Part shown: positions 1 to 32,000 of the stretch, in pieces
Layout: each line of letters starts with the position of its first letter
Numbering within the stretch: the stretch's first letter is position 1
Source of the DNA: Candidatus Saccharimonadota bacterium
GTDB taxonomy: Bacteria; Patescibacteriota; Gracilibacteria; BD1-5; UBA6164
NCBI GenBank assembly: GCA_004563595.2
Contig: CP042461.1
Location: 510,001-542,000 of the forward strand
DNA length: 32,000 nt
Reading direction: 5' to 3'
Translations under genes and position numbers: made by a program
The notes under the pieces: model-generated
The model's database searches: none
Seen by the model: the letters and a program-made list of their open reading frames with translations, nothing else
What the model was told of the DNA's origin: nothing

Positions 1-2397
1 ATAAGCTATTGTAACTCAAACATTTTCGAGTCTTGCTTCTAGATTTGCAATTTGGAGCTTAACTATTTTTTTAATATTCCCTTTATCAAGAGGCTTAAAT
101 ACAATAACTTTATCAATTCTATTTACAAACTCAGGAGAGAAGTAGTCAGTGAGATTTTCTTTTATTTTTGTACTTGCTTTTTCATAGTCAGCCATAACGG
201 AATCTTCTTGTTCACCTGATGCATCAAAACCAATTCTATGTGCTTTTTCCATAAATTCTTCTTGTCAGATATTCGAAGTCATTATGATAATGGTATTTTT
301 GAAATTTACCTGTCTTCATTTGTTATCTGTAAGAGTTCAGTCCTCCAAAATTTGGAGAAGAATATTATAGACCTCAAAATCTCATTTTTCAATTTCATCA
401 AAAAGAATAACTGAATATGGTTTTTTTCTTACTTTTTCAGTGAGCATCCCACCTTCTTCATATCATACATATCAAGCATTTGATCCGATGAGTTTATTTA
501 CAGCAGTTTTATCTGAATATTCACTCATGTCTATTTTGATAAGAGCATCTTTGTCATCATAAAATTCTTTTGCAAGGACTTTTACAAGTTCAGTTTTTCA
601 TACTCATGTTGGCCCGAGGAATAGGAAACTTCATAATGGTCTATTTGGATTTCAAATTCCAGCCTTGCTTCTCATAATTGATTTTACGATATTTTCACAT
701 GCTTCATCTTGACCAATAATACTTTTTTTAATATCCTTTGGTAAGTTCTTAAGCTTATCAATTTCGTGTTTATTTAAATTTGAAATAGGTATTCAGGTAG
801 CAATATGGAGTACTTTTTGTACATCATCAAGTGTGACACTGAGTCTTTTTTCTTTTGGAATGGTAAATTTTTTCTTTGCTTCAATAATTTTTGCTTCGAG
901 CTCAGCTTGATCTTCTTTGAGTTTATATGCTTTCTTGTATGATTGAGCGATAACTGCTTGCTCTATATTTTTTTGGAGAGATGCGATTTTTTCACGGAGT
1001 TTTTTTGTTTCTGTTTCATCAAAATTATACTTCATACTTTTTATACTACAAGCCTCATCAATAAGATCAATAGCTTTATCAGGTAAGTATTTATCCGTCA
1101 CATATCTCATTGATAGATCCACTGCTCATTTTACAGCATCAAAATCTATATTAAGGTTATGATAGTTTTCAAAAGATTCTTTGAGCCCATCAATAATTTG
1201 AGTAGCTATTTCTCTCGAAGGTTCATTTACTACAATCTTTTGAAACCTCCTTTCAAGTGCTGAATCTTTTTCTATATATTTTTGATATTCATTATTTGTA
1301 GTTGCTCAGATAACTCTTATTTTTCCTCTTCCCATTGCTGGTTTGAGTATATTTGAAGCATCAAGTGTTCATTCTCAACCTCAAGCTCAAATAATAGTAT
1401 GGATCTCGTCTATAAATAAGATAATTTCATTTTCTACTTTTGAAGCTTCTTCAATGACTTGCTTAATTCTTGATTCAAATTCTCATCTGTATTTTGTCCC
1501 TGCGATCAAAGAAGACATATCAAGTGACAAGACCCTTTTATCTTTCATTGAAAAAGGAACTTTTCATTCTATTATTTTGAGAGCCAATCCCTCTACAATA
1601 GCAGTTTTTCCAACTCAAGGTTCTCATACCAGAGCAGGATTATTTTTTGTTTTCCTATTTAATATTGCTATGAGTCTTTCGATTTCTTTATCTCTTCAAA
1701 GTATAACATCAAATTTTCAATCTCTTGCTTCTTTTGTCAGGTCATTTGAAAAGAAATCAAGTGCAGGAGTAGTAGATTCTTCTTTTTTATTGGTTTGCTC
1801 TTTATTGAGATCAAAAGGTGTGGTATCTCATTCTAAATTTTCCTCTCAAAGAAGGTTCTGAGTTAATGCTCATAATAATTTATCAATAGAATCATCTGCT
1901 AAATTCACATTTGTATTACTTGTTCAATATCATCCATTTTTTAATCCATCAATGGTTCATAATTTATTGAGATCTGTAAGGTTTGTGTCTATATCAGTTG
2001 TAACTATCCCAATATAATCTAAAAAGCTTGTAAACCAAGAGTCATTTTTAATCATAGATAATAAGAAGTCTTCTAAGCTGGCTTTTTCTTTAGAAAAACT
2101 TGCAGCTACTTTGACACTTCATAAAATGACGTTTTTTAATCTTGAACTCATCCCAGAATACACTCATTTTCTTATGCTTGGTGCTTCATTAAAAACTCAT
2201 TTGTTTATAATTTCAATGGCAAGTTTTTCATTTATTCAATAGAGTGCAAAAATTTCTTTTATTCCTCATGTCGAGTTTTTTATAATTTCTAAAAAAACAT
2301 CTTCAAGAGAAAGCTCTTTGAGTCACATTTGTTTTATATTATTTTCAGCATTTATGAGTACCTTTTTATATCCGTCAGAGAAGTTGTTGTATGACAT
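1..2397 (-). CDS. clpC: ClpC/ClpB-class AAA+ chaperone ATPase (N-terminal Clp repeats, two NBDs, short UVR-like linker). The C-terminus runs off the left edge.
   Basis: With TGA=Gly, track ORFs 16..252 and 793..1122 and the sequence between them form one frame from the ATG (rc) at 2395-2397. Walker A 1 reads PALVGEPGVGKTA, with two Gly encoded by TGA (rc of 1624-1626 and 1615-1617). Walker A 2 reads FLGPTGVGKTEL (rc near 601-640), also with TGA Gly. I read lines 241-660 in frame and found no TAA/TAG. The TGA at 16-18 is followed by more sense codons up to position 1. Confidence 0.9.
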
Positions 2398-2617
2398 TAT
2401 CTTTTGTTTTTATGATAAATTAAATTCTTCTTTAGTGTAGAGAGTTTCTTTTTCTTGTAAAGATATTTTTAAAAATTATGTTAAAAAATAGTTGTAAATT
2501 TTTATTATCATCTTATAATATCAATTATACTATATAAAACTGATTTTATTAAGTATTTTTCTATAAAATGGTTTTACTAGCGAGTAATATAATTTATAAT
2601 TTAAAACTTACTTTACT

Positions 2618-3121
2618 ATGTTCAATAAAAAATTCTTTATTCTTGCAACTTGATATGTAATGTGAGGACTTGTTTCGTCGTTTTATAATAAAAAGAAACC
2701 TGAACAATTAAAAACTGAGCTAAAAAAGGCAAGAAAGAATGGAGATGGAGATTTTCAAGTTTTACTAAATAGTTTCTTAGATACTCATAAAAATCTTATA
2801 CAAGATATAGAAAAGGAATTATTAACAGAAAAAAATAAAGAACTTTTTCATTCAAAAAAAGAAGAATTATTAAATATTGCAACAGTATATCAAACTGAGT
2901 GAAATAAGTTAATTGCTGAACTTAAATCTCAATGAAAAGATTTTATTGTTGAAGCATCTGATACATTAGAGAAGTTATATAATGAAAAAAAAGATGAACT
3001 CGATACTTTTAAAGATATTTCTCCAAAAAAAGTTGAAAATTTAAAAGATAATCTCCTCGCTTCTTTTGAGGAATTAAAAGAAGTAATTAAAAATGAGATA
3101 AAAAGTGAAAAAAAGAAATAA
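2618..3121 (+). CDS. Hypothetical small membrane-anchored coiled-coil protein (YtxH-like organisation, 167 aa)
   Basis: ATG at 2618, TAA at 3119-3121, four in-frame TGA read as Gly. It has an N-terminal hydrophobic segment FFILATGYVMGGLVSSF followed by a K/E-rich helical region. No motif-level identification. Confidence 0.5.
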
Positions 3122-3150
3122 ATAATATTTTACTATTAACTATCAAAGAC

Positions 3151-3729
3151 ATGAAAATCGAATTACCAGTACTTCCGTATGAAATGAATGCATTAGAACC
3201 ACATATTTCAGAAGAAACATTACAATATCATTATGGGAAACATCATAATACTTATGTTATGAAGCTGAATGGACTTATTCCAGGTACAGAGTTTGAAGGA
3301 AAAGATCTGGAAACTATTATAAAAACTTCAAATGGTGGAGTTTTTAACAATGCTGCACAAATTTGGAATCATACTTTTTACTGGAACTGTCTTGCTCCAA
3401 ATGCTTGAGGAATACCAGATTGATCTCTACTTGAAGCAATTGAAAACAATTTTGAAAGTTTTGAAAATTTTAAAGAAAAATTTACTGCTTCAGCTGTGAA
3501 TAATTTTTGATCAGGGTGGACTTGGTTAGTTAAAAATTTAGAAGGAAAATTAGAAATAGTAAATACTTCAAATGCAGAAACACCACTCACTGGAAACTAT
3601 AAGGTTCTCCTTACTTGTGATGTATGGGAGCATGCATATTATATTGATTATAGAAATGTGAGACCAGATTATCTCGCTGCGTTTTGGAATCTCGTTAATT
3701 GGGATTTTGTAAATAGTAATTTAAAATAA
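3151..3729 (+). CDS. sodB: Fe-type (Fe/Mn family) superoxide dismutase, 192 aa
   Basis: Track ORF 3151..3408 continues through TGA at 3406-3408, 3421-3423 and 3508-3510. Translation gives HHxKHH-type N-terminus, ...LAPNAGGIPDG..., FGSGWTWL and [30 protein letters not shown]. The YIDYRN region is typical of FeSOD. TAA at 3727-3729. Confidence 0.93.
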
Positions 3730-3842: not shown

Positions 3843-4661
3843 ATGGAGGAACATTATTTATGAAATTCTGTGAAGAAAAAATGAGGGAAGTGATTCACTC
3901 TTGTAGAACTTTTAGTTATAGTATCGATTGTAGCAATTCTGGGTACAATCGGTTTTTTATCATATACATGATATACTATTCAAACAAGAAATGTGAAAAG
4001 GTCATCGGATCTTCATTCAATAATAAACAATATAGAAATTTCATTTATTGATAGCGTATCATTATTTTCTATGCTTGATAATACTTGATCAACACTTACC
4101 TCGACAGCTTCATGAGATAATATTCAAATATCGTGAAGAAGATATCCAGACTTGAATGGTTATTACGAAGCTTGAGATATTAATTATAGGATATTGTGAC
4201 TAGAAAAAGATAAATTTTTAGACCCATCAACGAATAAATCTTATAAACTGTGAGTTACTTCATTATGATATAGGTATGAGATAGGAGCGACATTAGAAAA
4301 ATCAGATTGATGAGATTCACTTATTATGTGAAATCGGAAGCCAAGAACTTCTCTATGAGCAAGATGAGAATGAACGGGAATATTATGAAATAGGTATTAT
4401 TTAGTCTCATGAAATTCTGCTGAATCGACATGATTAAAGCAAAGAGATATAGTAAATATAGGTACATGAGCTACAAGTTTAGATTATGTAATAATCGGGT
4501 TAAAATGAAATAAAGTATATTTAGACCAAGAAATTAACCAATGAGGAGATAATATATACTTGCAGTATGATGAAACTCGACATCTAATAAAAAGATGGGA
4601 TTCAAACTGGGCAATAGATATATGAAAAGGAAACATATATACTCCATATGAAATTAATTAG
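3843..4661 (+). CDS. Type IV pilin / pseudopilin-like protein with prepilin N-terminal cleavage/methylation domain (272 aa)
   Basis: The real frame differs from track ORF 3860..4051. From ATG 3843 it reads MEEHYLGNSVKKKGGKG|FTLVELLVIVSIVAILGTIGFLSY. The -1 Gly of the G|FTLxE site is the TGA at 3891-3893. There are many further TGA codons and the stop is TAG at 4659-4661. Confidence 0.75.
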
Positions 4662-5700
4662 TTACTTATTAAATAAAATAATTATGGCAAATAAAAACAA
4701 AGATGAAAACATGTTAGATGAACTTTTTGAAGATTTTACTGAAGTTCAAAAAAAGGAGAAAAATAATCAAGATAAAAATATAGAAAAATTGGATCCTAAG
4801 AAAAAAAAGAAACAAATTTTGATTCTTGTTGTTCTTTTAATTGCTGTATTGGTAGGATATTTTTTCTATTTAGAAAGTTTAGAAAATAGTGAGACTACAG
4901 TTACTCAGGATACAATTATTATTGATACTACAGATAGTGATTATGAAAATAATGTATGAGATTCAAATGATGTCAAAGAGAATCCAGATACAGATTATTC
5001 TATTGAACTCAAGGCGAGATATAAAAAACTCTATTCATTGTTTATTGATAGAACATGGGTAGTCACTGCTCGTTCAGATTTTACAAATGTTTGGTGAGAT
5101 GAGAATATTGAACAATTAGAAAAGTGATGACTAAAAATATCATACCCAAAGGGGAGTTATAAACCATCAGCAGATCCAAGGTGATGAGCAGGATTTATAT
5201 ATCATATATGAGATGATTATAAAAAATTAAAATTTTCTTATGATTTAGAGTTTGCTCCAAACTTTGATTTTGTTAAAGGGGGGAAGTTACCATGATTATG
5301 TTGATGAGATTGTGCAAGGGGTTGAGAAAATGCTAATAATGGTTTTTCTATTCGTTTTGCTTGGAAAAAAGATTGATATCTTGATACCTTAAGTTCAATT
5401 CCATGAGCATCAAAATATGGATCATACTCATGAAAAAAACTTTTTAAGTTTGAAGCATGAAAAAATTATAATATTTCACAAGAAATTATACTTAATACTC
5501 CATGAAAGAATGATGGATCTCTTATTGTAATGGTTGATGGAAGTGAAGTGTATAAGCAAACTGATTTACTTTATAGAAATAACTGAGCTATACAACTTGA
5601 TTCAATTCTATTTTCAACTTTTTTCTGAGGAAGCGATATCTCATGGGCTACTCCAGTTGCTACTTATATTAAATTTAGAAACTTCAAAATGAGTAAATAA
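4648..5700 (+). CDS. Signal-anchored secreted protein with polysaccharide-lyase family 14-like (PF14099-type) domain
   Basis: Track ORF 4648..4959 continues through the TGA at 4957. Motifs: SYPKGSYKPSADPRGGAGF, FVKGGKLPGLCGGDCARGG, NGFSIRFAWKKDGYLD, ILNTPGKNDGSLIVMVDGSEVY, FSTFFGGSDISWATP. TM segment ILILVVLLIAVLVGYFFYL. TAA at 5698-5700. The start could instead be ATG 4684. Confidence 0.65.
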
Positions 5701-5724: not shown

Positions 5725-6576
5725 ATGAATAAACGTCAGCAAGCCATAAAAAAAATGATTATAAAAAACAAGGAGATTTTTTTTATTATTACTCTCTTTA
5801 TTTTTGCGATAATTATAATGACATTTAGTTTTCATGGGGGAAAAAAAGATGATTGAAAACTCGTTCAAGAAATTTCAGTTAATACTTTAAATAACTCACA
5901 AGCTCTTATGTTTGATAATTTTTTAAGTACACGTTGAAAGGTCTCTTGATATACTAATAATTGGTGACGTGAAAATATAATAAATTTTTCAAATGGCGAA
6001 TTAAAGATATTCTACCCAAAAGGGAGCTATACTCCATCAAAAAAGCCAGTCTGATGACTTGGATTTATTAAAAAGCTGAGTAATAGCTATGAACATGCAA
6101 AACTTACTTATAAAGTGAAATTTGATACTGATTTTGACTTTGTAAAGTGAGGGAAACTCCCCTGATTTTGTGGATGAGACTGTTCAAGGGGATGATTGGA
6201 TACAGATAATGGTTTTTCAACAAGATTTATGTGGAGAACAAATGGATATTTGGAAGTGTATGCATATTTAGCAACAAAAAAATGAACATATTGAAAAAGC
6301 CTATGAAGAGGAATGATAACGATGGTACCAGATAAATATTATGAAATCTCACAAGAAATAGTTCTTAATACTCCTGGAAAAGCAAACGGAGTACTTATTG
6401 TAAGTGTTGATGGAGAAGAAGTTTATAGAAATACTGAGCTTATATTTAGGAAAAATAGCTCTTTATGAATAGATTCATTATTATTTTCAACGTTTTTCTG
6501 ATGATGAGACCCGAGTTGGTCGAGTGAGAAAGATAATTATAGTTTTATGAAGGATTTTGAAATTTTTTATGAATAA
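5725..6576 (+). CDS. Second PL14-like signal-anchored protein, tandem paralog of 4648..5700
   Basis: ATG 5725, TAA 6574-6576. It has the same motif series: FYPKGSYTPSKKPVGGLGF, FVKGGKLPGFCGGDCSRGG, NGFSTRFMWRTNGYLEVYAY, LNTPGKANGVLIVSVDGEEVY, FSTFFGGGDPSW. TM segment IFFIITLFIFAIIIMTF. Confidence 0.65.
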
Positions 6577-7143: not shown

Positions 7144-8688
7144 ATGGCTGATTTTATGCCACACAAACCAGAACAAACAGAATCTTCTAAGGATAGCCGA
7201 ATTTTAGTATCGGCTTTTACTGGTTTGATTTTTTTTGGTCTGATATCACATATAGCAGTTAATATTGATGATCTTTTGCTTCTTACAAAAGGATCAATGA
7301 CATCAGTGATTGCTTATGTGGCAGGGGTTGGAATTATTTCTGCTTGGAGATATTCTAACTATTTGTATAACGCGTATCGAGCTGTTACATATAAGTTTTG
7401 GTACAAAACTTGGGAAGAAGAAGTAGAGTCTCATGACTTACCTCTTCCATATGACTTACTTGAAGTTCATGTGATGGCATATGAGGAAACTCCTCTTGTT
7501 TTTGCTACTTGTTTTCGATCATTGGCAATTGATGTTGCATCAACTGAAATACCAGCAGTTATTTATGTGAGTATTTCTAAAGATAAAGCAAGAGCTTCGG
7601 TTGATTTACAGGTCATTAAGAAAACCATTAATGGTTTGGAAAAAGAGAATATTATTGTTGTTGATAATGCTACAAGGAAGTTAATCACTATTAATCAGAA
7701 AGGGCAAGGAAAGAAAAATGCACTTGCAAGTTCGATTGATATGGGATTAACTAACCCTAGTATGCAAAGTATACGACGAGCTGTTCTACTTATGGACTGT
7801 GATCAATTTATTGTGAAAGGAACGATTAAGAGATCTTTAAAATTTTTAGGATCGAGCGATAGAGTAAATGCTGTTACTCCTAGTAATAGAGCATGGTGCC
7901 TTACTGATAGTGATGCATATGTTGAACTATCATCTGTACGGCTTGGTCCTCGAAGAGATCATTCAATGTCAGTAGCAGCTACGGTAGCTACTGGTAGATT
8001 TGTGATATTTGAAGGGGAGTTTATTACTAAAACTCTTGTTAAAAAACTAAATCATGATATTTATACTTATGATGAGTTTGGGAGTTTTATAGCAGCTACA
8101 GGTGAGGATAAACGTACGTATTTGGACCTTCTTGAAAAAGGGGGTGATATAGCATTTTTATTATCTGTAGTAGTTTTTTCTATTGAGGAACCAGAGAATG
8201 AAGAAAAACCTATAAGGTCATTTGTTTCACAAATGTTTCGTTATAAGGGAAATTCCCATCGTTTTCATTCAAAAGTTCTTAAGCTTCCACCAGAGTTGCT
8301 TGACTTTCAGAAAAGACGAATATTTTGGGATCAAAAATGGGCATTCTGGACTCCTATAACAGGAATTTTAAGCGCTTTAGTCGGTTTAGTAATGTGGGGA
8401 AAAGTTGTAGTTGAAATATACTTTGTTGGAGCGTACTTAATAAGGGAAATCCAGGCAAGGTATTACTGTTGGTTTACTGGGGTGAAATATTCTCCATGGA
8501 TGCCGATAACTATTTATTTTGATCAAACTTTTGGAGCTTTTATTGATTTATTGGCTAGGTTTACACCAAATGTTTCAAAATGGATACAGAAAGGAGTACC
8601 TCAGGGGGGAGAAATTCAAGCGGTATCAATACTTAATATTACTATTACATTTATGGCAGTATTTCTGCTTATATTAACGATTACTTAG
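7144..8688 (+). CDS. Membrane-embedded processive family-2 glycosyltransferase (hyaluronan synthase / NodC / chitin synthase / Alg8 class), 514 aa
   Basis: Uninterrupted even in the standard code. Two N-terminal TM helices and several C-terminal ones flank a cytosolic domain carrying QKGQGKKNAL, LLMDCDQF (DxD), ATGEDKRTY (GEDR-type) and QMFRYKGNSHR (a QxxRW-type motif with Y in place of W). I counted about 28 Gly, all GGN and none TGA. TAG stop. Confidence 0.8.
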   Translation: MADFMPHKPEQTESSKDSRILVSAFTGLIFFGLISHIAVNIDDLLLLTKGSMTSVIAYVAGVGIISAWRYSNYLYNAYRAVTYKFWYKTWEEEVESHDLPLPYDLLEVHVMAYEETPLVFATCFRSLAIDVASTEIPAVIYVSISKDKARASVDLQVIKKTINGLEKENIIVVDNATRKLITINQKGQGKKNALASSIDMGLTNPSMQSIRRAVLLMDCDQFIVKGTIKRSLKFLGSSDRVNAVTPSNRAWCLTDSDAYVELSSVRLGPRRDHSMSVAATVATGRFVIFEGEFITKTLVKKLNHDIYTYDEFGSFIAATGEDKRTYLDLLEKGGDIAFLLSVVVFSIEEPENEEKPIRSFVSQMFRYKGNSHRFHSKVLKLPPELLDFQKRRIFWDQKWAFWTPITGILSALVGLVMWGKVVVEIYFVGAYLIREIQARYYCWFTGVKYSPWMPITIYFDQTFGAFIDLLARFTPNVSKWIQKGVPQGGEIQAVSILNITITFMAVFLLILTIT

Positions 8689-8696
8689 GGGGAAAT

Positions 8697-10124
8697 ATGA
8701 ATTCACCAATTTCTGAAGCAGAAGTATTGCATCATTCACACCCAGCACTTAAATTTCGAGTAGGAGATATATTATATGATATTAATGGCTGGAATTCTGT
8801 AACAATAGAATTGAAGACAAAGTTGCCAGATGACATTACTGATGCTGTTTTAGAGATATGGGATAAAAAACGAAAGGGGCTTATTCCATTACTGGTTGAT
8901 GATCTTCATGAGTCTGAGGGTAGACACTTTCTCTATCCTATACAAGAAGTAGGGGATGAATCCAATGGTCGACTCGTTGTTTTAGAAGGTGAGGTCGCTA
9001 TAGGTGATTCTGATAGCTGGGTTCAGGATTTGTCAGCTAGAGTTCCATTGGAGACAATAGATCATGATCATATAGCAGATATAAAGATGAAGCGTAGGAT
9101 GCCTCTGAAATTTAAGTTTCTTGGCTGGACGTTATTCACAGCTTTAGCTTTTGCGATTAGCTATGAAGTCATGTTCAAAGATATTGCATTAACAGCATAT
9201 TCAAGCCCTCAGTCTGTTGATCGCTTCCGACAATCAGGATTGGAAGTAAAAACTTCTTCTGTTGGTCAGGATGTTGAAGAAAACAGTGTGTACCTGAGCT
9301 TAAATGACTTTGATTTAATTGATAGGAAAACTGCACTAGAGAGTGAAGAAAAGCTATGGAGATCTAAAATAGCTTTGGCAATAGCAAGGTTTAATACCTT
9401 GAATATAAGAGTTAATCTTGATCGAGAGTTACTTACACCATTACTTGAGGAAAAAATAAAAAGAAGAACTGCTATGGGGAATGGTCATGAACATGCATTT
9501 TCTGCATATGAAATGGCTGATATAAACATTGAAGTACTTAATCTTCAGGCAAGATCAAATGCTTTAGAAAAAGGAGTTATTAACAATGGGGATACTACTC
9601 AATCTATTAATGTCTTTCAAGAAGAGTTAGATGTTCAGAGAGCTGAATTGAAAAAAGTAGTTAATGGTTTAAAATCATTAGAATTACAGGAAGCAAATTT
9701 AGAAAAACTAGCTCCATCTGATTCCAACTTTATAGAATTTATTGAAGGAGGAGAGAATGCCGAATTTAGTAAAGCTATTTTTATACCACTTGATAATACA
9801 GAAAATGTTATCATAGTAGCAGCCATAAGTCGGGATATATTTAATAGACTTTCTGGTAATGAAGTGTATTATAGTAGGGTAGGTGGAGGAATGTGGAGGT
9901 CAGCTCCATATGAAGTATTAAGTGACCTTGACTTAAAAAACTTCTACTTATCTAAAGACTTCTTAAATGGAGATACTGTTAAAATAAAAATAAAAACAGA
10001 AATAGGTGGGGAACTACGCAAGGAGCTCATTGGGGAACCAGTGAATGTTCATGTACCTGTAGTGCCTCTTAATTTCATGCCTCGATGGCTTCATCCTAGG
10101 GTTTTTCTATCCTATGTGATTTAG
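8697..10124 (+). CDS. Co-polymerase/export partner: ~140-aa cytoplasmic domain, one TM helix, then a periplasmic coiled-coil plus beta-rich region resembling membrane-fusion (HlyD-like) proteins. The architecture is Alg44/BgsB-like.
   Basis: GGGGG SD at 8688-8692, ATG 8697 (8 nt after the upstream TAG). TM segment FLGWTLFTALAFAISYEVMF. Heptad-like stretches (LNLQARSNALEKG..., ELDVQRAELKKVVNGLKSLELQEANLEKL) are followed by VIIVAAISRDIFNRLSGNEVYY and GDTVKIKIKTEIGG, which resemble an MFP barrel. No TGA codon. TAG stop. Confidence 0.55.
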   Translation: MNSPISEAEVLHHSHPALKFRVGDILYDINGWNSVTIELKTKLPDDITDAVLEIWDKKRKGLIPLLVDDLHESEGRHFLYPIQEVGDESNGRLVVLEGEVAIGDSDSWVQDLSARVPLETIDHDHIADIKMKRRMPLKFKFLGWTLFTALAFAISYEVMFKDIALTAYSSPQSVDRFRQSGLEVKTSSVGQDVEENSVYLSLNDFDLIDRKTALESEEKLWRSKIALAIARFNTLNIRVNLDRELLTPLLEEKIKRRTAMGNGHEHAFSAYEMADINIEVLNLQARSNALEKGVINNGDTTQSINVFQEELDVQRAELKKVVNGLKSLELQEANLEKLAPSDSNFIEFIEGGENAEFSKAIFIPLDNTENVIIVAAISRDIFNRLSGNEVYYSRVGGGMWRSAPYEVLSDLDLKNFYLSKDFLNGDTVKIKIKTEIGGELRKELIGEPVNVHVPVVPLNFMPRWLHPRVFLSYVI

Positions 10125-12201: not shown

Positions 12202-13149
12202 ATGGAATCAAAAAATATTCAAGAAAAAATACAACAAGTGAAAACAGAAATAGCAAAAAAAGTAGTGTGACAAGAAAACCTTGTAAGAGACTTGCTAATA
12301 TGACTATTTTCTCAATGACATGTACTTCTTGAATGAGCTCCATGATTAGCAAAAACACTTGCAGTTGCAACGCTTTCAAAAGTAGTTGATTTAAATTTTA
12401 AGAGAATTCAATTTACTCCAGATTTACTTCCAAGTGACCTTATCTGAGCAAAAATATATAACCAAGAAAAACAAGACTTCCAAATAAAAAAGTGACCGAT
12501 TTTTACGAATATAGTTCTTGCAGATGAAATTAATAGATCACCATCAAAGGTCCAATCAGCACTCCTCGAAGCAATGGCAGAAAAACAAGTAACCATAGGA
12601 GATAAATCATATAAACTGAGTGAGCCATTTATGGTTCTTGCTACTCAAAACCCACTCGAACAATCAGGGACATACTCTCTTCCAGAAGCACAACTTGATA
12701 GATTTTTACTTAAAACCATTGTAAACTACCCTAATGAAACCCAAGAAATAGAGATCATGAAACAGTATGCTTCTGATAGTGAAGTAAATCTAGATAAAGT
12801 ACTTTCAAAAAAAGAGCTTTTAGAAATACAAAAACAAGCTGAATCCATATTTGTAAACGATCATATATATGAATATGTAAAAGATCTTGTTTTTTACACG
12901 AGAAATCAAGATTTCATGAAAAAGTACCTTGCTATCTGAGCCTCACCAAGAGCATCAATTGCACTTATAAAAACAGCAAAAATTTTAGCTCTCCTGGACG
13001 GAAGAGACTTTGTCCTCCCAGAAGATATAAAAGAAATGATCTACCCTGTTATGAGGCATAGAATCATCCTCTCATACGAATCAATAGCTGAAGGAGTCAC
13101 AACAGATGATGTAATCACTGAAATCCTTTCTAAAGTAAGTGTTCAATAA
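12202..13149 (+). CDS. moxR: MoxR-family AAA+ ATPase, 315 aa
   Basis: ATG 12202, TAA 13147-13149. Walker A is LLEGAPGLAKT with TGA Gly at 12334-12336 and 12343-12345. Walker B is VLADEINR. Also [27 protein letters not shown] and ASPRASIAL. It joins track ORF 12574..12939. Confidence 0.9.
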
Positions 13150-13264: not shown

Positions 13265-13284
13265 TATAATTTCAATATACAACA

Positions 13285-14124
13285 ATGCATAAAAAACATA
13301 AAAACCTTCTCGACCTAAAAATAAATAGACTCGTTGATAATCTCTCTGTTTGAAACCATAAAACAGCATTCAAGGCAAAATGAATGGAATTCGCTGACTA
13401 CAGAGAATATGAATACGGTGAAGAAAGTAAGAACATTGATTGGCTAGCATCTTCAAGAGAATGAAAAATGATAGTGAAGTTATTTGAAGAAGAAAGGGAG
13501 ATGGATGTATATGTATTAGCACTATTTGATTGAGATATCGATTTTGAATTCAATGGAGTAAAAAAAAGAGATGTAGTTGAAGAGATTTTTTACCTACTTG
13601 GACTCTCAACTATACAGTTTCAAAATAAACTATGAGCAATTTTTCATGATAGTGAGAAAAAAAGAATATTTGAAGCAAAGAAATCAAAGGCTCACTTTTT
13701 AAATATATTTTCAGAGTTTGAGAAGAGTAATTTTTCAGGGAATGATATAAATAGCTATTTAGAATATTTTAACTGACTAAATATAAAGAACTCTCTTGTT
13801 TTTTTACTCACATCAGATACAAATATTGATGAAAAAATATTAAAAATATCATGTGTAAAGAATGATTTTGTCGTTTGTAATACTTTTCATTCATTTGAGA
13901 ATAATCTTACAGGTACATGAATAATATGATTGAAAAACTCTTGAATGAAAGTCTCTATAGACTTAGATGATACAGAGAAAAAAAATCAATATAAAAAACT
14001 CAGATATGATAAATTAAGCAGCTTTAAAGATAAAGTTTTTTCTTCCAAATGAAGATATTTATACTTTGATGAGAATACCTGTGTATTCAGTGAATTTTTT
14101 AAATTTTTTCATACACATTATTAA
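13285..14124 (+). CDS. DUF58 family protein (MoxR-associated, VWA-like)
   Basis: ATG 13285, TAA 14122-14124. Signature GMEFADYREYEYGEESKNIDWLASSREGKMIVKLFEEE. Its position directly after moxR is typical. Confidence 0.8.
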
Positions 14125-14603: not shown

Positions 14604-15614
14604 ATGTTTACATTTTTATATCCATGAGTTTTCCTATTTATTGTACCAGTAATTATATTGGTTGTTTTTTTGTATTTCCAATGATTAAGAAGAGTAGATT
14701 TTTGACCATTAAAAGATCTGCAAAAATTTTATAAAAAAGATACTCTCTATTTTAAGATATATAATTTTTTATTACTGCTGATATTTTTTGTTTTTATAAC
14801 AATTTTATCCGGACCAGTAGTAAGTGAAACAAAGGAAAACATAAAGAAAAATGGTATTGATATACAAATAGTCTTGGATGTATCACTTTCTATGATCGCT
14901 GAGGACCTAAAACCAAATAGATTAGAAGTAGCAAAGTGAGTGATATATGATTTTTTAAACACTCTCAAAACAGATAGAGTTGGGCTTGTTATTTTCGCAT
15001 GAAAACCATTTATCTCACTCCCACTCAATTTTGATTATAATATTTCAAAAAAAATAGTAGATAAAATTTCAGTATCTACTATTAATCAAAACTCCCCTCA
15101 CTTACAATGAACGGCTGTATGAGATGCTTTGTTATTAGCTACTGATTCATTTGATGACAAATCAAAGCAGAGATGAAAAGTCATTGTTTTGATAACCGAT
15201 TGAGAGGCTAACAAGTGATTGAATCCATTAATCTGAGTTGAATATGTAAATAAGTTGTATAAGAATAGCTTAAACAAAGAAAAAATAAAAGTGTATACTA
15301 TCTGAATATGATGATCAGAAAAAACGTTTATTCTCTATAAACACCCCTTTGCTTGAACTCAAAAGGTAGAAATTTCTTGAGTGGATGAAGAGACTTTAAA
15401 AACTATTGCTTCAAAAACATGATGAGAATATTTTAGGGCAACAGATAAAAAGAGCTTAGAGAAGATATTTGAAAATATTTCAAAACTTGAGAAAAAAGAA
15501 ATAGAAGTAGAATCTATTGAAGTTCATAAAAGTAAAAATATATATTTTGTTTCTTTGTTGATGATATTATTTTTACTCCTCTTTCTACTTAAATTAAGAA
15601 AGAATATAATTTAA
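14604..15614 (+). CDS. batA: VWA-domain membrane protein BatA
   Basis: ATG 14604 (1 nt after the upstream stop), TAA 15612-15614. MIDAS elements LDVSLSM, GTAVGDAL, ITDGEANKG and IGIG, with N- and C-terminal TM helices. Confidence 0.85.
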
Positions 15615-16577: not shown

Positions 16578-17239
16578 GCTTAGTAACATGCGCCTGTATA
16601 GTTTTATTTTTTATTGTTAATTATAATGCTATTATATCAGAGTATTATAACTATAAAGGAAATATCTTGTATCAGGAATGATCGTTTACATGAGCTTTAG
16701 CATATCATAATTGATCACTTCAGAATAAAAAGTCTCCTGAGATTTTACATAACTTATGAAATGATAGTTTTAAAATTTGAGAGGAGAATACTGATCTGCA
16801 AAGAAAATTTGAGTTGTATAATAATGCATTAAATTTTTACTCATGATCGTTGAGTATTGCAGAAAATTTCGAAACTCGAGAAAATTATAATTATGTACTT
16901 GAAAAGATAATAGAAGAATTTACGAAACAAGAGAATAAAGGTCAGGATAAAAATAGGGAAGAACAAGATGAAAATAATAATGACCAAAATCAAAACTCAA
17001 GTAACACTTGATCTAATTCTGAGGAGAATTCAGGAGCACAGATCGAATTATCAGAATCTAACATGGAAGAAATTAAAGACTATATAGAAAAACTAAAAAG
17101 ACAGCAAGCTAAAAACTGACAGTACTTTAATAAGGAGGAACAATCAGATATTGATTCTAATAATTTCTTTTTCTGAAATTTTGTAAATGACCCATTTTTT
17201 CAAGATGTATTTAATAGATGATGAGAAAAAGATTGGTAA
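16565..17239 (+). CDS. batC: TPR-containing BatC-like protein
   Basis: ATG 16565 overlaps the batB end. Signal-anchor CACIVLFFIV, TPR-like GNILYQEGSFTGALAYHNGSL...LGNDSF, an acidic/low-complexity middle, and a C-terminal ...GGEKDW. TAA at 17237-17239. Confidence 0.7.
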
Positions 17240-17240
17240 T

Positions 17241-17274
17241 AAAAAACTCTCAGCATACGCTGAGAGTTTTTTAT
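17241..17274. terminator. Bidirectional terminator between batC and ybaB
   Basis: aaaaaactctcagc atac gctgagagtttttt. Confidence 0.75.
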
Positions 17275-17303
17275 ATAGATACATTGTGAGGTTATGTCCC
17301 TTT

Positions 17304-17636
17304 TTACATTCCAGGGAGTCATCCAGCACCCATATTTCCCATTCCCATTTGACTCATTACTCATTTCATTTTTTCAGCTGCAACTTCTTGAGATTTTTTA
17401 ATTCATTTATTTACTGCTTCCAAGATTGCAGTTTCTAATGCTGCTTTTTCTGAGCTAGATAAGCTTGGAATTAAGTCAGTTGTTTCAAACTCAACTTTTT
17501 CTATTTTCATTTCTCAGTTTACTGTGATCACAAGTCCACTTACTTCAGATTCAATAAATGTATTTTCTAATTGTTTTTTTACTTTCATTGCTTCTTGTTG
17601 AAGTTTCATCATTTCTCATGCTTTTGAAAAATCCAT
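17304..17636 (-). CDS. ybaB: YbaB/EbfC-family nucleoid-associated protein, 110 aa
   Basis: ATG (rc) 17634-17636, TAA (rc) 17304-17306. Reads MMKLQQEAMKVKKQLENTFIESEVSGLVITVNGEMKIEKVEF...ALETAILEAVNKGIKKSQEVAAEKMKGVMSQMG. Confidence 0.85.
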
Positions 17637-17767
17637 ATTTATTTTTTATTATATATTAAACATTTTGTGTAGAGATTATATAAATATATTATTTTTTTTC
17701 AAATTTTTGACTCTGAAAATTTTTTGTGTTACAATTTAATCATGTATTAGTTACTAAATGAAAAACT

Positions 17768-18538
17768 ATGGGAACTACTGGTCAATCAAAAGATGATGAT
17801 TTAATCATTTTATCAGATGATATAACTACAGATGAAGAAACATTTTGAGAAAATATTTTAGATGATTCTGTTTTATTAGATGATACAAAGGAGAATGACT
17901 CTGATATTCTTACATTTGATGCTGATTTAAGTAAAGCTGAGGATTGAGTTATGGATAATATGAGTGAAGATACTATCATTGATTTAGATGATAATAACTC
18001 TCTTGATCCTATAGAAGATGATTCAGATACAAAGTGAGATGATTCAAAAATAGATTTTGATTTTTGAGACTTATGATCTGATAATGTTGAAAAAGAAGAG
18101 GAATCTACTACAGAACAAGAGAATTCATTAGATATCTCTGATTCTGACGAGATATTAGACTTATGAGAATGATTGAATATTCCTGAGGATACTATTCAAG
18201 AAGATACTGAATGAAATAATGAAGAATCAGGTTTTTCTTTAGATTCAACTACATTCTCAGGTGATAATTCTTCAGATAACTGAACTATGTCATCCATCTT
18301 AGATGATACTATTTCGAAACTTAGTTCAAGAAAAGGAGCATTAGAGGATAAAAAAAATATAGAAGAAACTCATATATCTGAATTAAAAGATCAAGTAAAA
18401 GATTTAGAAATTCAAGTTTCTGATTCTGAAGAAAAAGTTGAAAATTTCAAAACTGAATCAAAACATATTGAATCTAATATTTCTCAATTAGAGAAAATGA
18501 AAGAAGTACCGAGTGATTGAGGGAAGAAAATGAAATAA
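17768..18538 (+). CDS. Highly acidic hypothetical protein with a C-terminal coiled coil, 256 aa
   Basis: ATG 17768 is in frame with track ORF 18287..18520 and continues past the TGA at 18518 to TAA 18536-18538. The N-terminal two thirds are D/E/S-rich. The C-terminus reads ELKDQVKDLEIQVSDSEEKVENFKTE. Confidence 0.6.
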
Positions 18539-18545
18539 TAGCCAT

Positions 18546-18581
18546 AAAAACCCCTGACTTGAATAAGTCAGGGGTTTTTAT
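18546..18581 (+). terminator. Rho-independent terminator
   Basis: aaaaacccctgactt gaat aagtcaggggttttt. Confidence 0.8.
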
Positions 18582-18590
18582 ATATAAAAA

Positions 18591-18640
18591 TTATTAAACA
18601 ATAATAGTCAAATTAAATCTTGACTATTATTGTTTAATAA
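18591..18640. repeat. Perfect 21-bp inverted repeat with an 8-nt spacer, overlapping a putative promoter
   Basis: ttattaaacaataatagtcaa (18591-18611) / attaaatc / ttgactattattgtttaataa (18620-18640). The right arm begins with TTGACT (18620-18625), and TAGAGT lies 16 nt downstream at 18642-18647. Confidence 0.6.
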
Positions 18641-22038: not shown

Positions 22039-23091
22039 TTAATTATTATTATGAAGTTCATGGTTCAGTTTAATAGGCTTCTCATTTGTTAGACATACAA
22101 CTTGACCGGATTCAGAATCTCTACGGAAGAGTAGATCATCTTTTCCTGCTAAATCACGAGCTTTTTGCTGCCCATAAATTCCTCCTTCTGTATCGAGCAT
22201 GAGTACTTTTGTTCCAGCTGTAATATACAATCCAGCTTCTACAGTACATCGGTCACCTAATGGAATACCAGTACCTCCATTTGCACCGATTAAACATTTT
22301 TCTCCAACAGAAATAATAATATCATTTCCTCCAGAGAGTGTTCCCATAGTTGAACAACCACCACCTAAGTCAGATCCATCTCCAACGACAACTCCAGCCG
22401 AGATTCGACCTTCAATCATTGATACTCCGAGTGTTCCTGCATTAAAGTTTACAAAACCTTCATGCATGATAGTGGTACCTTTTCCAATATATGCACCAAG
22501 ACGAACTCGAGCAGTGTCAGCAATTCTGACACCACTTGGCACCACATAATCAGTCATTTTAGGAAATTTATCAACTGAACTTACTGAAAGAACCCTACCT
22601 TCTGCACGAGCTTGAAGCTGACGTGCAGGGAGTTCTTCGAGATCAATAGCTCCTTCATTAGTCCATGCGATATTTGGAAGAATACCAAATATTCCATCTA
22701 AATTTTGCTCATGAGGCTTTACAGCTCGGTGAGACAAAAGTGAGAGTTTTAGGTAGACTTCTTCAACATTTTGTGCTGTGGAATTTGTTTCAAGGATAGT
22801 TATTACTATTCTATTATGAGCATTTTCTGATCCTTTTAAAAATGAGCTAGTACCTTCATGTTTTGCAAAGATTTCTAGAAGATTCTCCAGAGTATAGTCA
22901 TTAACAGAGAGAGTGGTATTTCCTCCTGGATATCCAATATTTTCAGAACAAAGACGTACAAAGTCGTCTACGAGTTCGGAATTATTCTGACTTCGGACAA
23001 ATGCTTTATGATAGTAGACTTCTAATGTTTCTCCTTTTGTATTAGTAGTCTTTAATCCTAAACCAACTGCAAAAATTTTTGGTGAATTCAT
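22039..23091 (-). CDS. dapD: Long-form 2,3,4,5-tetrahydropyridine-2,6-dicarboxylate N-succinyltransferase (DapD, left-handed beta-helix acyltransferase), 350 aa
   Basis: Intact in the standard code. Contains YLKLSLLSHRAVKPHEQNLDGIFGILPNIAWTNEG, VDKFPKMTDYVVPSGVRIADTARVRLGAYIG, hexapeptide repeats, GSDLGGGCSTMGTLSGG and LLFRR. From memory this matches the ~340-aa proteobacterial-type DapD. GGGAGGG SD (rc of 23099-23105) lies 7 nt before the ATG. No TGA codon despite several dozen Gly. Confidence 0.85.
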   Translation of the reverse strand: MNSPKIFAVGLGLKTTNTKGETLEVYYHKAFVRSQNNSELVDDFVRLCSENIGYPGGNTTLSVNDYTLENLLEIFAKHEGTSSFLKGSENAHNRIVITILETNSTAQNVEEVYLKLSLLSHRAVKPHEQNLDGIFGILPNIAWTNEGAIDLEELPARQLQARAEGRVLSVSSVDKFPKMTDYVVPSGVRIADTARVRLGAYIGKGTTIMHEGFVNFNAGTLGVSMIEGRISAGVVVGDGSDLGGGCSTMGTLSGGNDIIISVGEKCLIGANGGTGIPLGDRCTVEAGLYITAGTKVLMLDTEGGIYGQQKARDLAGKDDLLFRRDSESGQVVCLTNEKPIKLNHELHNNN

Positions 23092-24636: not shown

Positions 24637-27600
24637 TTATTTCTTCAACTTAATTATAATATTCAAATCTCAGATTTCTAATTTTTTATCAATATCAGTT
24701 GTATCTAAACTTTCTACAACCGTTGAAAGTGTTTCAGATTCTATATTTTCTTGAAATTGAGCGAGTATATCATCAGCTCATTCTAAAGATACTTGAATCC
24801 TATCATCTACCCTATAATCAGCTTCCTTTCTTGATTCTTGTATGTGTCTTACTATATCTCTGTAATATCATTCTAGACGAAGTTCATCTGTGATATTTTC
24901 ATCCATAGCAATAACCATTCAGAAACCAGCTTCAATTAATGCTCCACTTTCTCAAGCTTCAAATACAAGTTCAAAGTCTCATGATGAAAGCTCAAAATGC
25001 CCCACTTTTACATCTCAATTTTCTAAGAGTTCAAAATTCCCTGATTTAGCTTCGGTCATGATAAATTTCACGTCTTTTCAAAACTTTGGTCCAATAGCTC
25101 TTCCATTTGGTTTACAAACCTGTTTCGCAAGAGTATTTCCATCTACTACAAGAACTTCTTTTACATTGAGCTCTTCTTTGATGATATCAATATAATAGTT
25201 ATCAAATGTTTCAGTAATAGTAATGGATTTTAGAGGTTGTCTTACCCTTAGTTTATTGTTTGCTCTCCAAGCTAATCCGAGGGTAATGATTTTTTGAATC
25301 TTTGCTGTATGCGTGTTTAATTTCTCATCTATGAGGTTAGAATCAAAAGTAGGGAAGTCAGTGAGATGAACAGATTTATCTCATGTCAGATCCTTATACA
25401 TGTATTCAGATATAAATGGCATGAATGGAGCTATGATTTTTGTAGTCTCAACAAGTACAAAGTTCAGAGTTTCATATGCTTGAAGTTTATCTCCATCATT
25501 TTCAGTTTTCCAGAATCTTTTTCTTGATCTTCTGATGTACCAGTTTGTAAGGTTATCCATAAATTTTACAATTGGTTTCGTAGCATCAGCAAGTTTATAA
25601 CTATCAAATCAGTTAGATACTTGTTTTGTAAGTGTGTTTAACTCAGAAAGTAACCATTTATCAAGATTATTTTCTATAGTTGTAGGAAGTCATTTTGATT
25701 CAAAGTTATCTATATTTGCATAGGTAGTGAAGAAATAATATGTATTCCAAAGTGGAAGGATTACTTTCTTTACTACTTCTTCTATTCATGCTTCTGCAAA
25801 CCTGAAATCTTGAGCTTCAACAACAGGAGAATTCATGAGATAGAATCTCATAGCATCAGCTCCATATTTATCAAATACAAGTGTTGGATCTGGATAATTT
25901 TGCTTAGATTTAGACATTTTTTGACCATCTTCAGCTAATATTATCCCATTTACGATCACATTTTTCATTGGAGCTTTATCAAATAAAGCTGTTCCAAGAA
26001 TAAGAAGTGTATAGAACCAACCTCTTGTTTGATCCAGTCCTTCTGCAATAAAATCAGCAGGGAATTTAAAATCACTTTTTGTATCAAAAGGGTAGTGTTT
26101 ACTGGCATATGGCATAGATCCACTTTCAAACCAACAATCTAATACTTCAGGAATTCTTTTGAGTTTTTCTCCTGTTTTTGGATCTTTTAAGAATATTTCG
26201 TCAACAAAATGTTTATGAATATCTACCTCTTCTCAGCTATTTGTATAGAAATACTTTATTTCTCAGTTTACAGTTTTTTCCTCAATTTGTCAGTATTCTT
26301 TATTGAGTTCATACATTTCTTTTATAGAACCAATACAAAGCTCAGTAGTTTTATCTTCATTTTGCCATACTGGTATAGCTGATCCCCAATATCTGTTTCT
26401 TGAAATATTCCAATCACGAGCATTTTCTACCCATTTTCAGAATCTTCAGTCTTTGATTTCATTTGGAGTCCAGTTGATTTCTTGGTTATTTTTGACCATA
26501 CGATCTCTTATTTTTTCAACAGCTACATACCAAGCAGAAATAGCTCTATACATAAGAGGTGATTCACACCTCCAGCAATGTGGGTATGAATGATCATATG
26601 TATTTATTTGAAGAGTTGATCCTTGTTTTTTGAGAGCTTCAATAACTAATTCATTGAAATCAAATACTTGAACTCAGTTGTTTTCAAGTAAGTTTTCAGT
26701 ATTTCCATTATCTGCGATATGACTTACAAAACCAAGTTTTTCATTTTTCCCAATTTGGTAATCATCTTCTCCATAAGCAGGAGCTATATGAACGATACCA
26801 GTACCAGACTCTGTTGTAACATGATGACCGATAACTACAGAATAAGTATTCGTATCAAAGTTCATCCCTTGAGGCATATTATCAGAGTCAGCGAGAGTTT
26901 GGAAATCCATAAATAATGGATCATATTTAATTCATTCTAAACATTTTCATTTATATTCTCTTGTGATGACATAATCATCTTCATTTTTATAGTATGCTGA
27001 GATTCTATCTCTTGCCATGATATATGTTTCTTCCGTTTTATGATCAAGTAATTCTACGTAATCAATATCTACTCAAACAGCAAGTCAGAGATTTGCAACT
27101 AGTGTCCATGGAGTGGTAGTCCAAGCGAGGATATACTTGCTTTCATTTCCTTGTACTTTGAATTTTACGGTTGCTGTTTTATCTTGAACGTCTTTATATC
27201 CTTGATTTACTTCGAAGTTTGAGAGGGGAGTACTACATCTAGGACAGTATGGTACTACTCTATATCCTTCATAGATAAGTCCTTTTTTATAGAGTTCAGA
27301 ATATACCCACCAAACAGATTCCATGAAGTCGGTATCCATAGTCTTATAATCATTTTCCATATCTACCCATCTTCCCATCCTATTTACTGTTTTTTTCCAT
27401 TCATTTGCGTAGGTAAATACATTTTCTCTACATGTTTCATTGAATTTATGTACTCAGATTTTTCATTCGATATCATCTTTCCCTGAAATTTCTAGTTTTT
27501 TCTCAACGATATTTTCGATAGGGAGTCCATGACAATCCCATCCAAATTTTCTATGAACTTGTTTTCATTTCATAGTTTGATATCTTGGTATTACATCTTT

Positions 27601-27798
27601 GATAGTACCAGCAAGGATATGACCATAATGGGGAGTTCCCGTTGCAAATGGAGGTCCGTCATAAAAATTGAACTCTTCAGAGTCTTTTCTGTTTTCTATA
27701 GATTGCTCAAAGATTTTATTCTCTTCCCAGAATTTTAATATACCTTCCTCAAGTTTTGGGAATGATTGTTTTGGGTTTACTTTTTTGAAGTTTGTCAT
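24637..27798 (-). CDS. ileS: Isoleucyl-tRNA synthetase, type 2 (long, eukaryote-like form), 1053 aa
   Basis: Track fragments 27565..27798, 27085..27378, 26674..26910 and 25786..26115 share one frame. HIGH region is [20 protein letters not shown] and KMSKS is [15 protein letters not shown] read every in-frame triplet from 25785 down to 24637. The first TAA/TAG (rc tta) is at 24637-24639. Confidence 0.93.
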
Positions 27799-28129: not shown

Positions 28130-28217
28130 TGGAGGAAGGGACGGGATTCGAACCCGCGGTGTCGTGAGACACACACGCTTTCCAAGCGTGCTCTTTCAAC
28201 CACTCAGACACCCTTCC
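28130..28217 (-). tRNA. tRNA-Ser (anticodon GGA), type II with long variable arm and encoded CCA
   Basis: rc reads GGAAGGG UG UCU GAGUGGUUGAA AGA G CACGC UUGGAAA GCGUG UGUGUCUCACGACACC GCGGG UUCGAAU CCCGU CCCUUCC U CCA. All four stems pair and the T-loop is UUCGAAU. Track ORF 28097..28315 on the opposite strand is spurious. Confidence 0.85.
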
Positions 28218-28538: not shown

Positions 28539-28544
28539 GCTTTT

Positions 28545-29117: not shown

Positions 29118-29128
29118 GTTATTTTAGT

Positions 29129-29533: not shown

Positions 29534-29545
29534 AGTTCTTGCATT

Positions 29546-29744: not shown

Positions 29745-29767
29745 TATTTTTTACTTATGAAAGCAAA

Positions 29768-30079: not shown

Positions 30080-30094
30080 GTCTGTATTTTTTAT

Positions 30095-31165
30095 TTAATC
30101 AATAAACTCAGTACAGTAGTGCGTTGTTACATAATAGTTATAATAGTTTTTTCATCACCATCCGTTTTCATCTACAGGAGCATCACTGATTGCAAGTCAT
30201 AATCATATTTTTGATATATCTGCATGAGTTATTGCCTTATAATGTGCATTAGCTGGGTAGGAAAGTCATTTTTCAGCCATGTATATATCAAAAATTTCTT
30301 TGAGTGAGTTTATGAGTTCATCAGTACAGTCATTATCAGTACATTTATAACCATATTTTCAAATACTTTCACTGCTGGTGGCTCTATTTTTCACTTTACA
30401 GATTACTCATCTATCATTAAACCATTTTTCTATTACTTTATAATCATAATATACATCAAAATAGTTTCTTTTATGCTCCATTACTCATTTTTGATCACTT
30501 ATATATGACCATTCATATGCTGAATTATCAAGCCTAGAATCATATGTATAGAGTGATACTCAAAGATCTCTCCTTGCTGTATTATGCCAATCTTTCCAAG
30601 TACTTTTTACTTTATTCATATCAATTTTATATTTTTTGTAATGACGTGTATATGTTGGTTCGAGGCTTATTTTTTTTGTTCAAACAATAATTTCATTAAT
30701 AATGACATATTTTTTTGTGCCTTCTTTGAGTTTCCTTAAAGTTTTCTCAAGTTTATAAATGAGGACTTCTTTATATTTTATTCATTTTGAATTCACGAGT
30801 TTTTTAATTTTTCCAATTACTTTTCCAGCAATTTTTTTATCACTACTTGATATAATATATTTTTTCGTGAGTATTTTATCTGATTTCTTTAATGATTGAT
30901 CCCATACCCATCAAGTACTCCCATTATCAAGCTCTATTTTATAGTATGAATCAACTTTTGCAATAATATTATAGGTTTCACCAGCTTTTACTCATCATAT
31001 TACCGTTGATTTATTTTTACAGGGGTAATTCCTGATATTTGATCAAAACTTTACTTCAGCAACAAAAGTTATACTTTCTGGTTTAAAAGTATCACATGCA
31101 TTCGTTGCAAAGCTATTTCAATAAGAAATGAAGAGTAGGACTATAATTAAGAGTATTTTTTTCAT
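30095..31165 (-). CDS. Secreted SH3b plus CAP/SCP/PR-1-like (YkwD-type) domain protein, 356 aa
   Basis: ATG (rc) 31163-31165, TAA (rc) 30095-30097, length 1071 nt. Signal peptide MKKILLIIVLLFISYGNSFA. SH3b-like IRNYPCKNKSTVIGGVKAGETYNIIAKVDSYYKIELDNGSTGWVW. CAP-like WHNTARRDLGVSLYTYDSRLDNSAYEWS...HKR...AHYKAITHADISKIGLGLAI. Confidence 0.7.
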
Positions 31166-31186
31166 AGAGAGTCTGGTAATTGGATA

Positions 31187-32000
31187 TTATTGGAGCTCAG
31201 TACAGTAGTGAGTTGTCATATATAATACGTAATTATTTCATCATTGACTTTGGATATCAAGTCAGAGTCATATTTTCCTAAAATCTTTATTTGTGATTCA
31301 TCTATAATGAGCATTTTGAGAATTAGAAAGTCACTTTTCAGACATATAATAATCAAAAGTTTTTTTAGCAGCAGATACAGCTCAGTCTGTACAATCATTA
31401 GTGCTACAGTTGAACCAGAATGCTCCAGTACTTTCACTATAGGTAGTTCAATTTACATTTTTACATACTACTCATCGATCTTTCATCCATCATTCAATTT
31501 TTGTATAGTTATAGAATGAATCTCATACATCTCTTTTATGAGATATATATCATCGTTGTGTTGCAAACTCTGACCATTCTTGAGCTGTTTTATCAAGTTT
31601 AGAGTCATATGAGTATAGCTCTACTCATATGTTTTTTCTTTCGGTATTTTGCCATTTCAACCATTCGGATCGTACTTTATTAATATCAAAACTAAGATTT
31701 GTATCGTTGCTAACCTCATAATTACTGGTAGTATTCTCAGTTGTAGGTGACTCTTGCTCAATTTCCTTTGTCCTATTTATGACATGTAAAATAATTTCAT
31801 ATTTTCGTGATCATGGTGATAGTTTTTGAAGTGCTTTTTCAAGAATAGTTATAATTTTTGACTTATAAATAAATCATTTTTTTCTTACTATTTTTTCAAT
31901 TCGAGAGTTGATTTTATATATAAGAATTCGATCTTTTGAGCTGAAATTATAATCAATTGTTACTGCTGTATTTGTTTGAATTATTTGGGGTGTGTCTATT
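31187..32000 (-). CDS. CAP/SCP-like secreted protein, tandem paralog of 30095..31165. The N-terminus lies beyond the right edge.
   Basis: The frame differs from track ORF 31216..31437. It ends ...VLYMTTHYCTELQ with TAA (rc 31187-31189), parallel to ...YYVTTHYCTEFID in the neighbour. The body reads WLKWQNTERKNIGVELYSYDSKLDKTAQEWS...HKR...AHYRGITNKDFRKIGLGL and is open to position 31999. Confidence 0.7.

Follow-up and report, generated by a model that had tools for sequence, protein, structure and literature searches.

The reassignment of UGA from a termination signal to a glycine codon has been known since 2013, and it is codified as translation table 25, the Candidate Division SR1 and Gracilibacteria code. 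The object of the present analysis is a stretch of 32,000 nucleotides of contig CP042461.1, hereafter the window, whose genes look fragmented when they are called with the standard code (table 11). We are nearly certain that this window is a piece of ordinary chromosome from a Gracilibacterium (BD1-5) that uses table 25, in which UGA specifies glycine and the stop codons are limited to UAA and UAG. The initial annotation of this DNA had assigned the genome to table 25 and had left its source as either SR1/Absconditabacteria or Gracilibacteria; the choice can now be narrowed to the latter. The likeness to table 25 comprises a frequent TGA glycine codon, TAA and TAG as the sole stops, an AT-rich genome, the Gracilibacteria lineage and a source genome deposited with that same table, and no difference from it was found in what the window shows.

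When TGA is translated as glycine, the SodB, MoxR, IleS and BatA proteins of the window are residue for residue those of GenBank (BatA, QFR39080.1; the other accessions are given in Table 1). These records belong to Candidatus Gracilibacteria bacterium 28_42_T64, and the genome of the window, which agrees with it in size, GC content and organism label, is presumably the closed genome of Sieber et al. 2019 (bioRxiv 10.1101/595074). That genome, closed and curated at 1.34 Mb and with a GC content of 28.87%, was subjected to gene prediction with code 25; it has prfA but no detected prfB, and prfB is likewise reported absent in other BD1-5 genomes (bioRxiv 10.1101/595074). Moreover, proteomics of another, related BD1-5 bacterium returned 97 unique peptides with UGA read as glycine, 3 with UGA read as tryptophan and 0 with UGA as stop (PMC4032931). 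Following the published work on the lineage, UGA would be decoded by a tRNA-Gly with anticodon UCA, and release factor 2 would be absent, so that UGA would not act as a stop. In other words, the reading of UGA as glycine is correct but already known, annotated for 28_42_T64 since the publication of 2019, and it adds nothing new, because the recoding was applied to this genome when it was published.

The effect of the code on the window was measured on non-overlapping open reading frames (ORFs) of at least 60 amino acids (aa), called with table 11 and with TGA, TAG or TAA taken in turn as sense. Table 11 yields 62 ORFs that cover 60.6% of the window with a median length of 78 aa, whereas under the TGA-sense reading 34 ORFs, with a median length of 277 aa, cover 97.6%, in agreement with the claim of the initial annotation that TGA is a sense codon throughout. 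Taking TAG as sense (69 ORFs, 66% coverage, median 83 aa) or TAA as sense (75 ORFs, 83% coverage, median 101 aa) restores ORFs far worse than TGA does. In a mononucleotide-shuffled window the TGA-sense reading covers 43%, and the longest ORF reaches 179 aa, as against 1056 aa in the real DNA. The gene set of the window holds 329 in-frame TGA in 9840 codons, and its 30 complete coding sequences all terminate with TAA (25) or TAG (5) and with no other stop, just as the initial annotation had stated for those that it rebuilt. Since TGA makes up 3.34% of the codons and GGN (N, any nucleotide) 3.23%, together 6.6%, the glycine content of these genes is normal; TGG accounts for 0.79%. TGA represents about half of all glycine codons in the window, and 61% in most genes.

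Which amino acid TGA stands for was addressed by masking TGA as X and aligning the window proteins to solved structures of standard-code organisms. In these alignments TGA falls on glycine at 18 of 24 aligned sites in ClpC (against Staphylococcus aureus ClpC, 6em9), at 8 of 8 in MoxR (2r44), at 3 of 3 in SodB (2w7w) and at 6 of 17 in IleS (8wnd), where the remainder lies at variable positions or gaps. Pooled over the four proteins, glycine is found opposite 35 of 52 TGA codons (P ~3e-29 against a glycine background of 7%) and tryptophan opposite none, which is the behavior expected of table 25 in standard-code homologues and the outcome of the ortholog alignment that the initial annotation had proposed. 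As internal references, TGG falls on tryptophan in 27 of 29 cases (20 of 22 in IleS alone), and GGN on glycine in 36 of 48 (MoxR, SodB and IleS).

The single sites singled out by the initial annotation also hold when they are read codon by codon. Specifically, the first Walker A motif of ClpC, GEPGVGKT, is written GTA TGA GAA CCT TGA GTT GGA AAA ACT, and the second, GPTGVGKT, reads GPTxVxKT with TGA at each x; that of MoxR, GAPGLAKT, is GAA TGA GCT CCA TGA TTA GCA AAA ACA. In SodB the FGSGW motif is TTT TGA TCA GGG TGG (TGA at 3508-3510), the glycine at position -1 of the prepilin cleavage site lies in AAG TGA TTC ACT CTT GTA GAA, and the metal ion-dependent adhesion site (MIDAS) of BatA, given as GTAVGD and TDGE, reads LQxTAVxD and LITDxE, where x is again TGA.

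The same sites bear on a different account of the window, namely that it follows the standard code and is decaying, rich in pseudogenes or riddled with sequencing errors. The fragmented look of its genes under table 11 would fit such a region, but the interruptions are always TGA and never TAA or TAG, they sit at functionally essential glycines such as those of the Walker A and MIDAS motifs, and neither frameshifts nor in-frame TAA or TAG were seen inside the window genes. In addition, TGA or GGN is conserved at these sites across the 43 divergent genomes described below, and the genome is closed and curated (bioRxiv 10.1101/595074). Decay or error is accordingly given a probability close to nil.

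Restored ORFs do not by themselves tell glycine from tryptophan, as table 4, in which TGA is tryptophan, and table 25 produce identical ORFs here. Table 4 is the code of Mycoplasma, Spiroplasma and some insect endosymbionts, and the window shares with it a UGA that is sense, a low GC content and the ORF map. It also finds an echo in the databases: some public pipeline translated 28_42_T64 proteins in this way, and public collections hold SodB and MoxR with tryptophan at every TGA on a contig of 418,566 bp, which suggests that a draft assembly was translated with table 4. However, TGA in the window is glycine and not tryptophan, as none of the 52 aligned TGA falls on tryptophan and TGG already serves for this residue; TGG is never found at window TGA columns in the relatives; and tryptophan would rise to 4.1% of residues, with glycine at only 3.2%. 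A tryptophan reading is thus extremely unlikely, and the alignments have already refuted it.

These observations also qualify the warning of the initial annotation that the region would be mis-annotated: it is justified by the public, table-4-style copies of SodB and MoxR, but does not extend to the GenBank record, which itself uses glycine. The choice of table matters in practice, given that table 11 shatters the window genes, table 4 yields full-length proteins with tryptophan in place of essential glycines, and mistranslated copies of 28_42_T64 proteins do circulate publicly.

An evolutionary test was performed by scanning one genome per GTDB species for the DNA of the ClpC Walker A motif with TGA at both glycine codons. 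The scan returned 73 loci, titled Gracilibacteria, 'Peribacteria', 'Patescibacteria group' or uncultured-bacterium metagenome-assembled genomes (MAGs), and none titled as a named standard-code taxon; the closest nucleotide match to the window in the GTDB representatives has an identity of only 76%, so that the source genome is not one of them. A codon-level alignment was then built from the window clpC and 43 orthologues from these loci. At the 36 columns where the window has TGA, the relatives carry TGA in 67% of cases, GGN in 15.5% and TGG in 0%; at the window GGN columns they carry TGA in 54% and GGN in 32%; and at the window TGG columns tryptophan is kept in 98%. TGA and GGN freely replace each other within ClpC columns, and therefore behave as synonymous codons.

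Nothing was found to contradict the glycine reading, although it has some gaps. First, 17 of the 52 aligned TGA face residues other than glycine, or gaps, in distant homologues; these sites are variable positions, and GGN codons likewise miss glycine in 12 of 48 cases. Second, the window contains no tRNA-Gly(UCA), its sole tRNA by ARAGORN and Rfam being a tRNA-Ser(GGA); beyond this tRNA (RF00005) the Rfam scan of the window returned nothing, and a tRNA scan of the loci of 60 relatives found neither tRNA-Gly(UCA) nor any other tRNA. Third, CGG occurs as only 3 codons in the window.

The scarcity of CGG is relevant to an extended code of the Absconditabacteria type, with CGA, CGG or both turned into tryptophan codons in addition to the change of TGA to glycine. 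Codetta predicts CGA and CGG as tryptophan in Absconditabacteria, and CGG as tryptophan in some Gracilibacteria (Shulgina and Eddy 2021, PMC8629427). The window resembles the Absconditabacteria code in that UGA is glycine and in that both CGA and CGG are infrequent and do not occur in core conserved genes, with CGG nearly missing and ClpC, IleS, MoxR and SodB devoid of both. It differs from it in the behavior of CGA, which amounts to 36 codons, 18 of them in three genes without TGA that are discussed below. Because CGA falls on an invariant arginine at 4 of 5 DapD sites and faces lysine or arginine in the CAP-domain paralogue, it behaves as an arginine codon, with no sign of the Absconditabacteria change to tryptophan. 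The extended code is very unlikely here: in the window, UGG stays tryptophan and CGA stays arginine.

While TGA is used throughout most of the window, three genes, a glycosyltransferase gene, its immediate downstream neighbor and a dapD-like gene, avoid it altogether. Binomial probabilities, computed against a host share of TGA of 61% of glycine codons, are given in Table 1 for the first two; in the dapD-like gene TGA is 0 of 42 glycine codons (P 7e-18). Because TGA is nowhere in frame in them and their stops are TAA or TAG, all three read identically under codes 11 and 25. They make up 13.6% of the window codons, their GC content is raised (0.35 in the glycosyltransferase pair and 0.38 in dapD, as compared with 29% in the window), and their GC content at third codon positions (GC3) is host-like. 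Arginine usage is also set apart, with a CGN to AGR (R, purine) ratio of 32:32 in these genes versus 39:199 elsewhere in the window (Fisher 2e-7), and the glycosyltransferase pair is CGA-rich in its arginine codons. No mobile-element boundaries were detected around the three genes, only terminator hairpins.

Among 1.84 billion representatives, no protein related to the glycosyltransferase exceeds 28% identity to it, and those relatives that bear a name are called Alg8 or mannuronan synthase. About 21 of 140 remote homologues exceed 800 aa, and the adjacent 475-aa protein was considered as the C-terminal half of homologues of about 880 aa, that is, as one part of a suspected fusion; it did not match and the idea was dropped. 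This neighbor returned nothing in Pfam or NCBIfam. Just upstream of the glycosyltransferase, which is of the mannuronan synthase type, lies the tandem of PL14-like lyases (PL14 is a family of alginate lyases), and together these genes may constitute an alginate-like exopolysaccharide module in a bacterium of the candidate phyla radiation.

The DapD protein is identical to GenBank QFR39087.1 and is of gammaproteobacterial type, scoring 508 bits against TIGR03536 (cut-off 518), with its best named homologues in Marinobacter, Oleispira and Thalassolituus at 60-64% identity; the gene has its own terminator-like hairpin. Its nearest relatives, P0002 and P0004, are likewise free of TGA, with none in 44 and none in 39 glycine codons, and lie on AT-rich contigs among TGA-dense neighbors; these counts are those of the copies on L074 and L077. 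The copies on other AT-rich contigs listed in Table 1 have a GC content of 0.40-0.47 in flanks of ~0.17-0.35; promoter-like and terminator-like signals accompany each copy individually, and no synteny is shared. When the five related copies are compared, 24 of 31 all-glycine columns vary among GGN codons and never show TGA. This TGA-free group, which occurs on two or more further code-25 contigs, retains 77-89% amino-acid identity, and its synonymous sites are heavily diverged.

In a small tree all five DapD copies join at a support of 100/100. With 80 metagenome loci included, support for placing the window copy with the others drops to 19/100 replicates, and P0002-P0005 remain exclusive at 100/100. 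A single-origin DapD clade in Gracilibacteria was consequently abandoned, and one proven acquisition is not claimed because support for the window copy falls to that value with broader sampling; one or two imports would account for these genes. A metagenome scan for TGA-containing DapD orthologues was swamped by standard-code genes of gammaproteobacterial type, and the partial matches of high identity proved to be GC-rich standard-code contigs.

Fully TGA-free ORFs are rare among the relatives, with 1 of 269 testable ORFs in the 73 loci. In another Gracilibacteria MAG (L027), a 548-aa beta-CASP/MBL protein has TGA at 0 of 33 glycine codons and a GC3 of 0.10, and the TGA share in the rest of that locus is 66%. 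Ribosomal protein genes and a peroxiredoxin gene adjoining clpC in relatives (L007, L041 and L013) use TGA for 12-47% of glycines, versus 70-83% in their neighbors, and prefer GGT, which suggests that TGA is a non-preferred glycine codon in highly expressed Gracilibacteria genes. High expression alone was nevertheless rejected as the explanation of the TGA-free genes, as those ribosomal protein genes still contain TGA and have AGA as their only arginine codon, whereas the TGA-free genes are CGN-rich.

The likeliest origin of the TGA-free genes, although the matter is not settled, is import from standard-code donors followed by incomplete amelioration. The persistence of the TGA-free state in P0002-P0005 may in part reflect ascertainment, given that ORF calls with table 11 hide TGA-containing orthologues. 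It is doubtful that code-25 genomes keep a small class of genes wholly free of TGA, maintained as such rather than merely recent. If it were so, these genes could form a code-neutral pool passed back and forth between recoded Gracilibacteria and neighbors or hosts with the standard code or, alternatively, could be under selection against UGA-glycine in particular genes; recoding would then act as a one-directional and leaky barrier to gene flow, leaving traces legible in individual genes. The TGA-free genes thus offer a modest lead on gene flow across a genetic-code boundary. A comparable neutrality has been described in phages, since code-11-compatible, TGA-free phages are predicted to infect Gracilibacteria, while all Gracilibacteria prophages are TGA-dense (PMC10746230). 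The three genes of the window are likewise neutral between codes 11 and 25, but they are chromosomal and carry no phage hallmarks.

Table 1. Position of the window genes and of the related genes on other contigs that are mentioned in the text
Feature	Position	Strand	Remarks
Whole window	1-32000		GC 29%; ~31 genes; TGA = Gly, TAA/TAG = stop
clpC, 3' end outside the window	1-2397	-	36 in-frame TGA; best structure match 6em9, 578 bits
clpC, TGA codons of Walker A-1	1626-1624, 1617-1615	-	Both Gly are TGA; two Gly of Walker A-2 are also TGA
Conserved hypothetical gene			Listed between clpC and sodB
sodB, Fe superoxide dismutase	3151-3729	+	3 TGA, all on conserved Gly; QFR39068.1
Type IV prepilin-like protein	3843-4661	+	Cleavage motif G/FTLVE; -1 Gly is TGA 3891-3893
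Two tandem PL14-like polysaccharide lyases	4648-5700, 5725-6576
Alg8-like family-2 glycosyltransferase	7144-8688	+	TGA 0 of 28 Gly codons; binomial P 4e-12
475-aa protein, no recognised family	8697-10124	+	TGA 0 of 26 Gly codons; binomial P 2e-11
moxR-family AAA ATPase	12202-13149	+	Walker A GAPGLAKT, TGA 12334-12336 and 12343-12345; opens Bat-like operon; QFR39077.1
Bat-like operon, DUF58 protein	13270-14124		Pfam
Bat-like operon, VWA protein	14604-15614		Pfam
Bat-like operon, VWA protein	15615-16577		Pfam
YbaB-like gene	17304-17636	-	Better call than ORF 17218-17739 (+)
Acidic protein	17768-18538	+	Better call than Ser-rich ORF 17689-18612 (-)
Beta-CASP nuclease			In the window gene content
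DapD-like succinyltransferase	22039-23091	-	TGA-free
ileS	24637-27798	-	25 TGA; best match 8wnd, 838 bits; QFR39090.1
tRNA-Ser(GGA)	28130-28217	-	Only tRNA of the window; ARAGORN, Rfam RF00005
CYTH and MazG genes			In the window gene content
Two tandem secreted SH3/CAP-like paralogues	30095-31186, 31187-31999	-
DapD relative, contig L074	1820-2860		AT-rich contig
DapD relative, contig L077	932-1972		AT-rich contig
DapD relative, contig L080	351-1388		AT-rich contig
DapD relative, contig L082	90-1130		AT-rich contig
Beta-CASP/MBL protein, L027	2854-4500		Other Gracilibacteria MAG
Ribosomal protein and peroxiredoxin genes adjoining clpC	L007 1100-3014; L041 3567-4217; L013 6201-6845		Related Gracilibacteria

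Two further genes show a lower use of TGA. SodB is 73% identical to the Fe superoxide dismutase of Aliivibrio salmonicida (2w7w), and 3 of its 13 glycine codons are TGA. The gene lies next to clpC in 0 of the 73 loci of the relatives, and the synteny of clpC with the conserved hypothetical gene is kept in 32 of 73; sodB seems to have come from Gammaproteobacteria and to have been partly ameliorated since. In ileS the TGA share is low, at 38% of glycine codons (P 1e-4), TGA lies mostly at variable positions and most conserved glycines are encoded by GGN. IleS matches structures of the cytoplasmic eukaryote-type IleRS at 838 bits, as compared with ~305 bits for the S. aureus type, and the gene may be an older import.

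Among the remaining genes of the window, the prepilin-like gene uses TGA for 24 of its 34 glycine codons; its product gave no Pfam hit, and the cleavage motif comes straight from the translated sequence. Around the YbaB-like gene and the gene of the acidic protein, the longest ORFs, which these two calls replace in Table 1, were discarded as antisense artefacts of dropping the TGA stop in AT-rich DNA. Finally, in the SH3/CAP-like tandem, the partial upstream copy carries CGA at sites occupied by AAA or AGA in the other copy.

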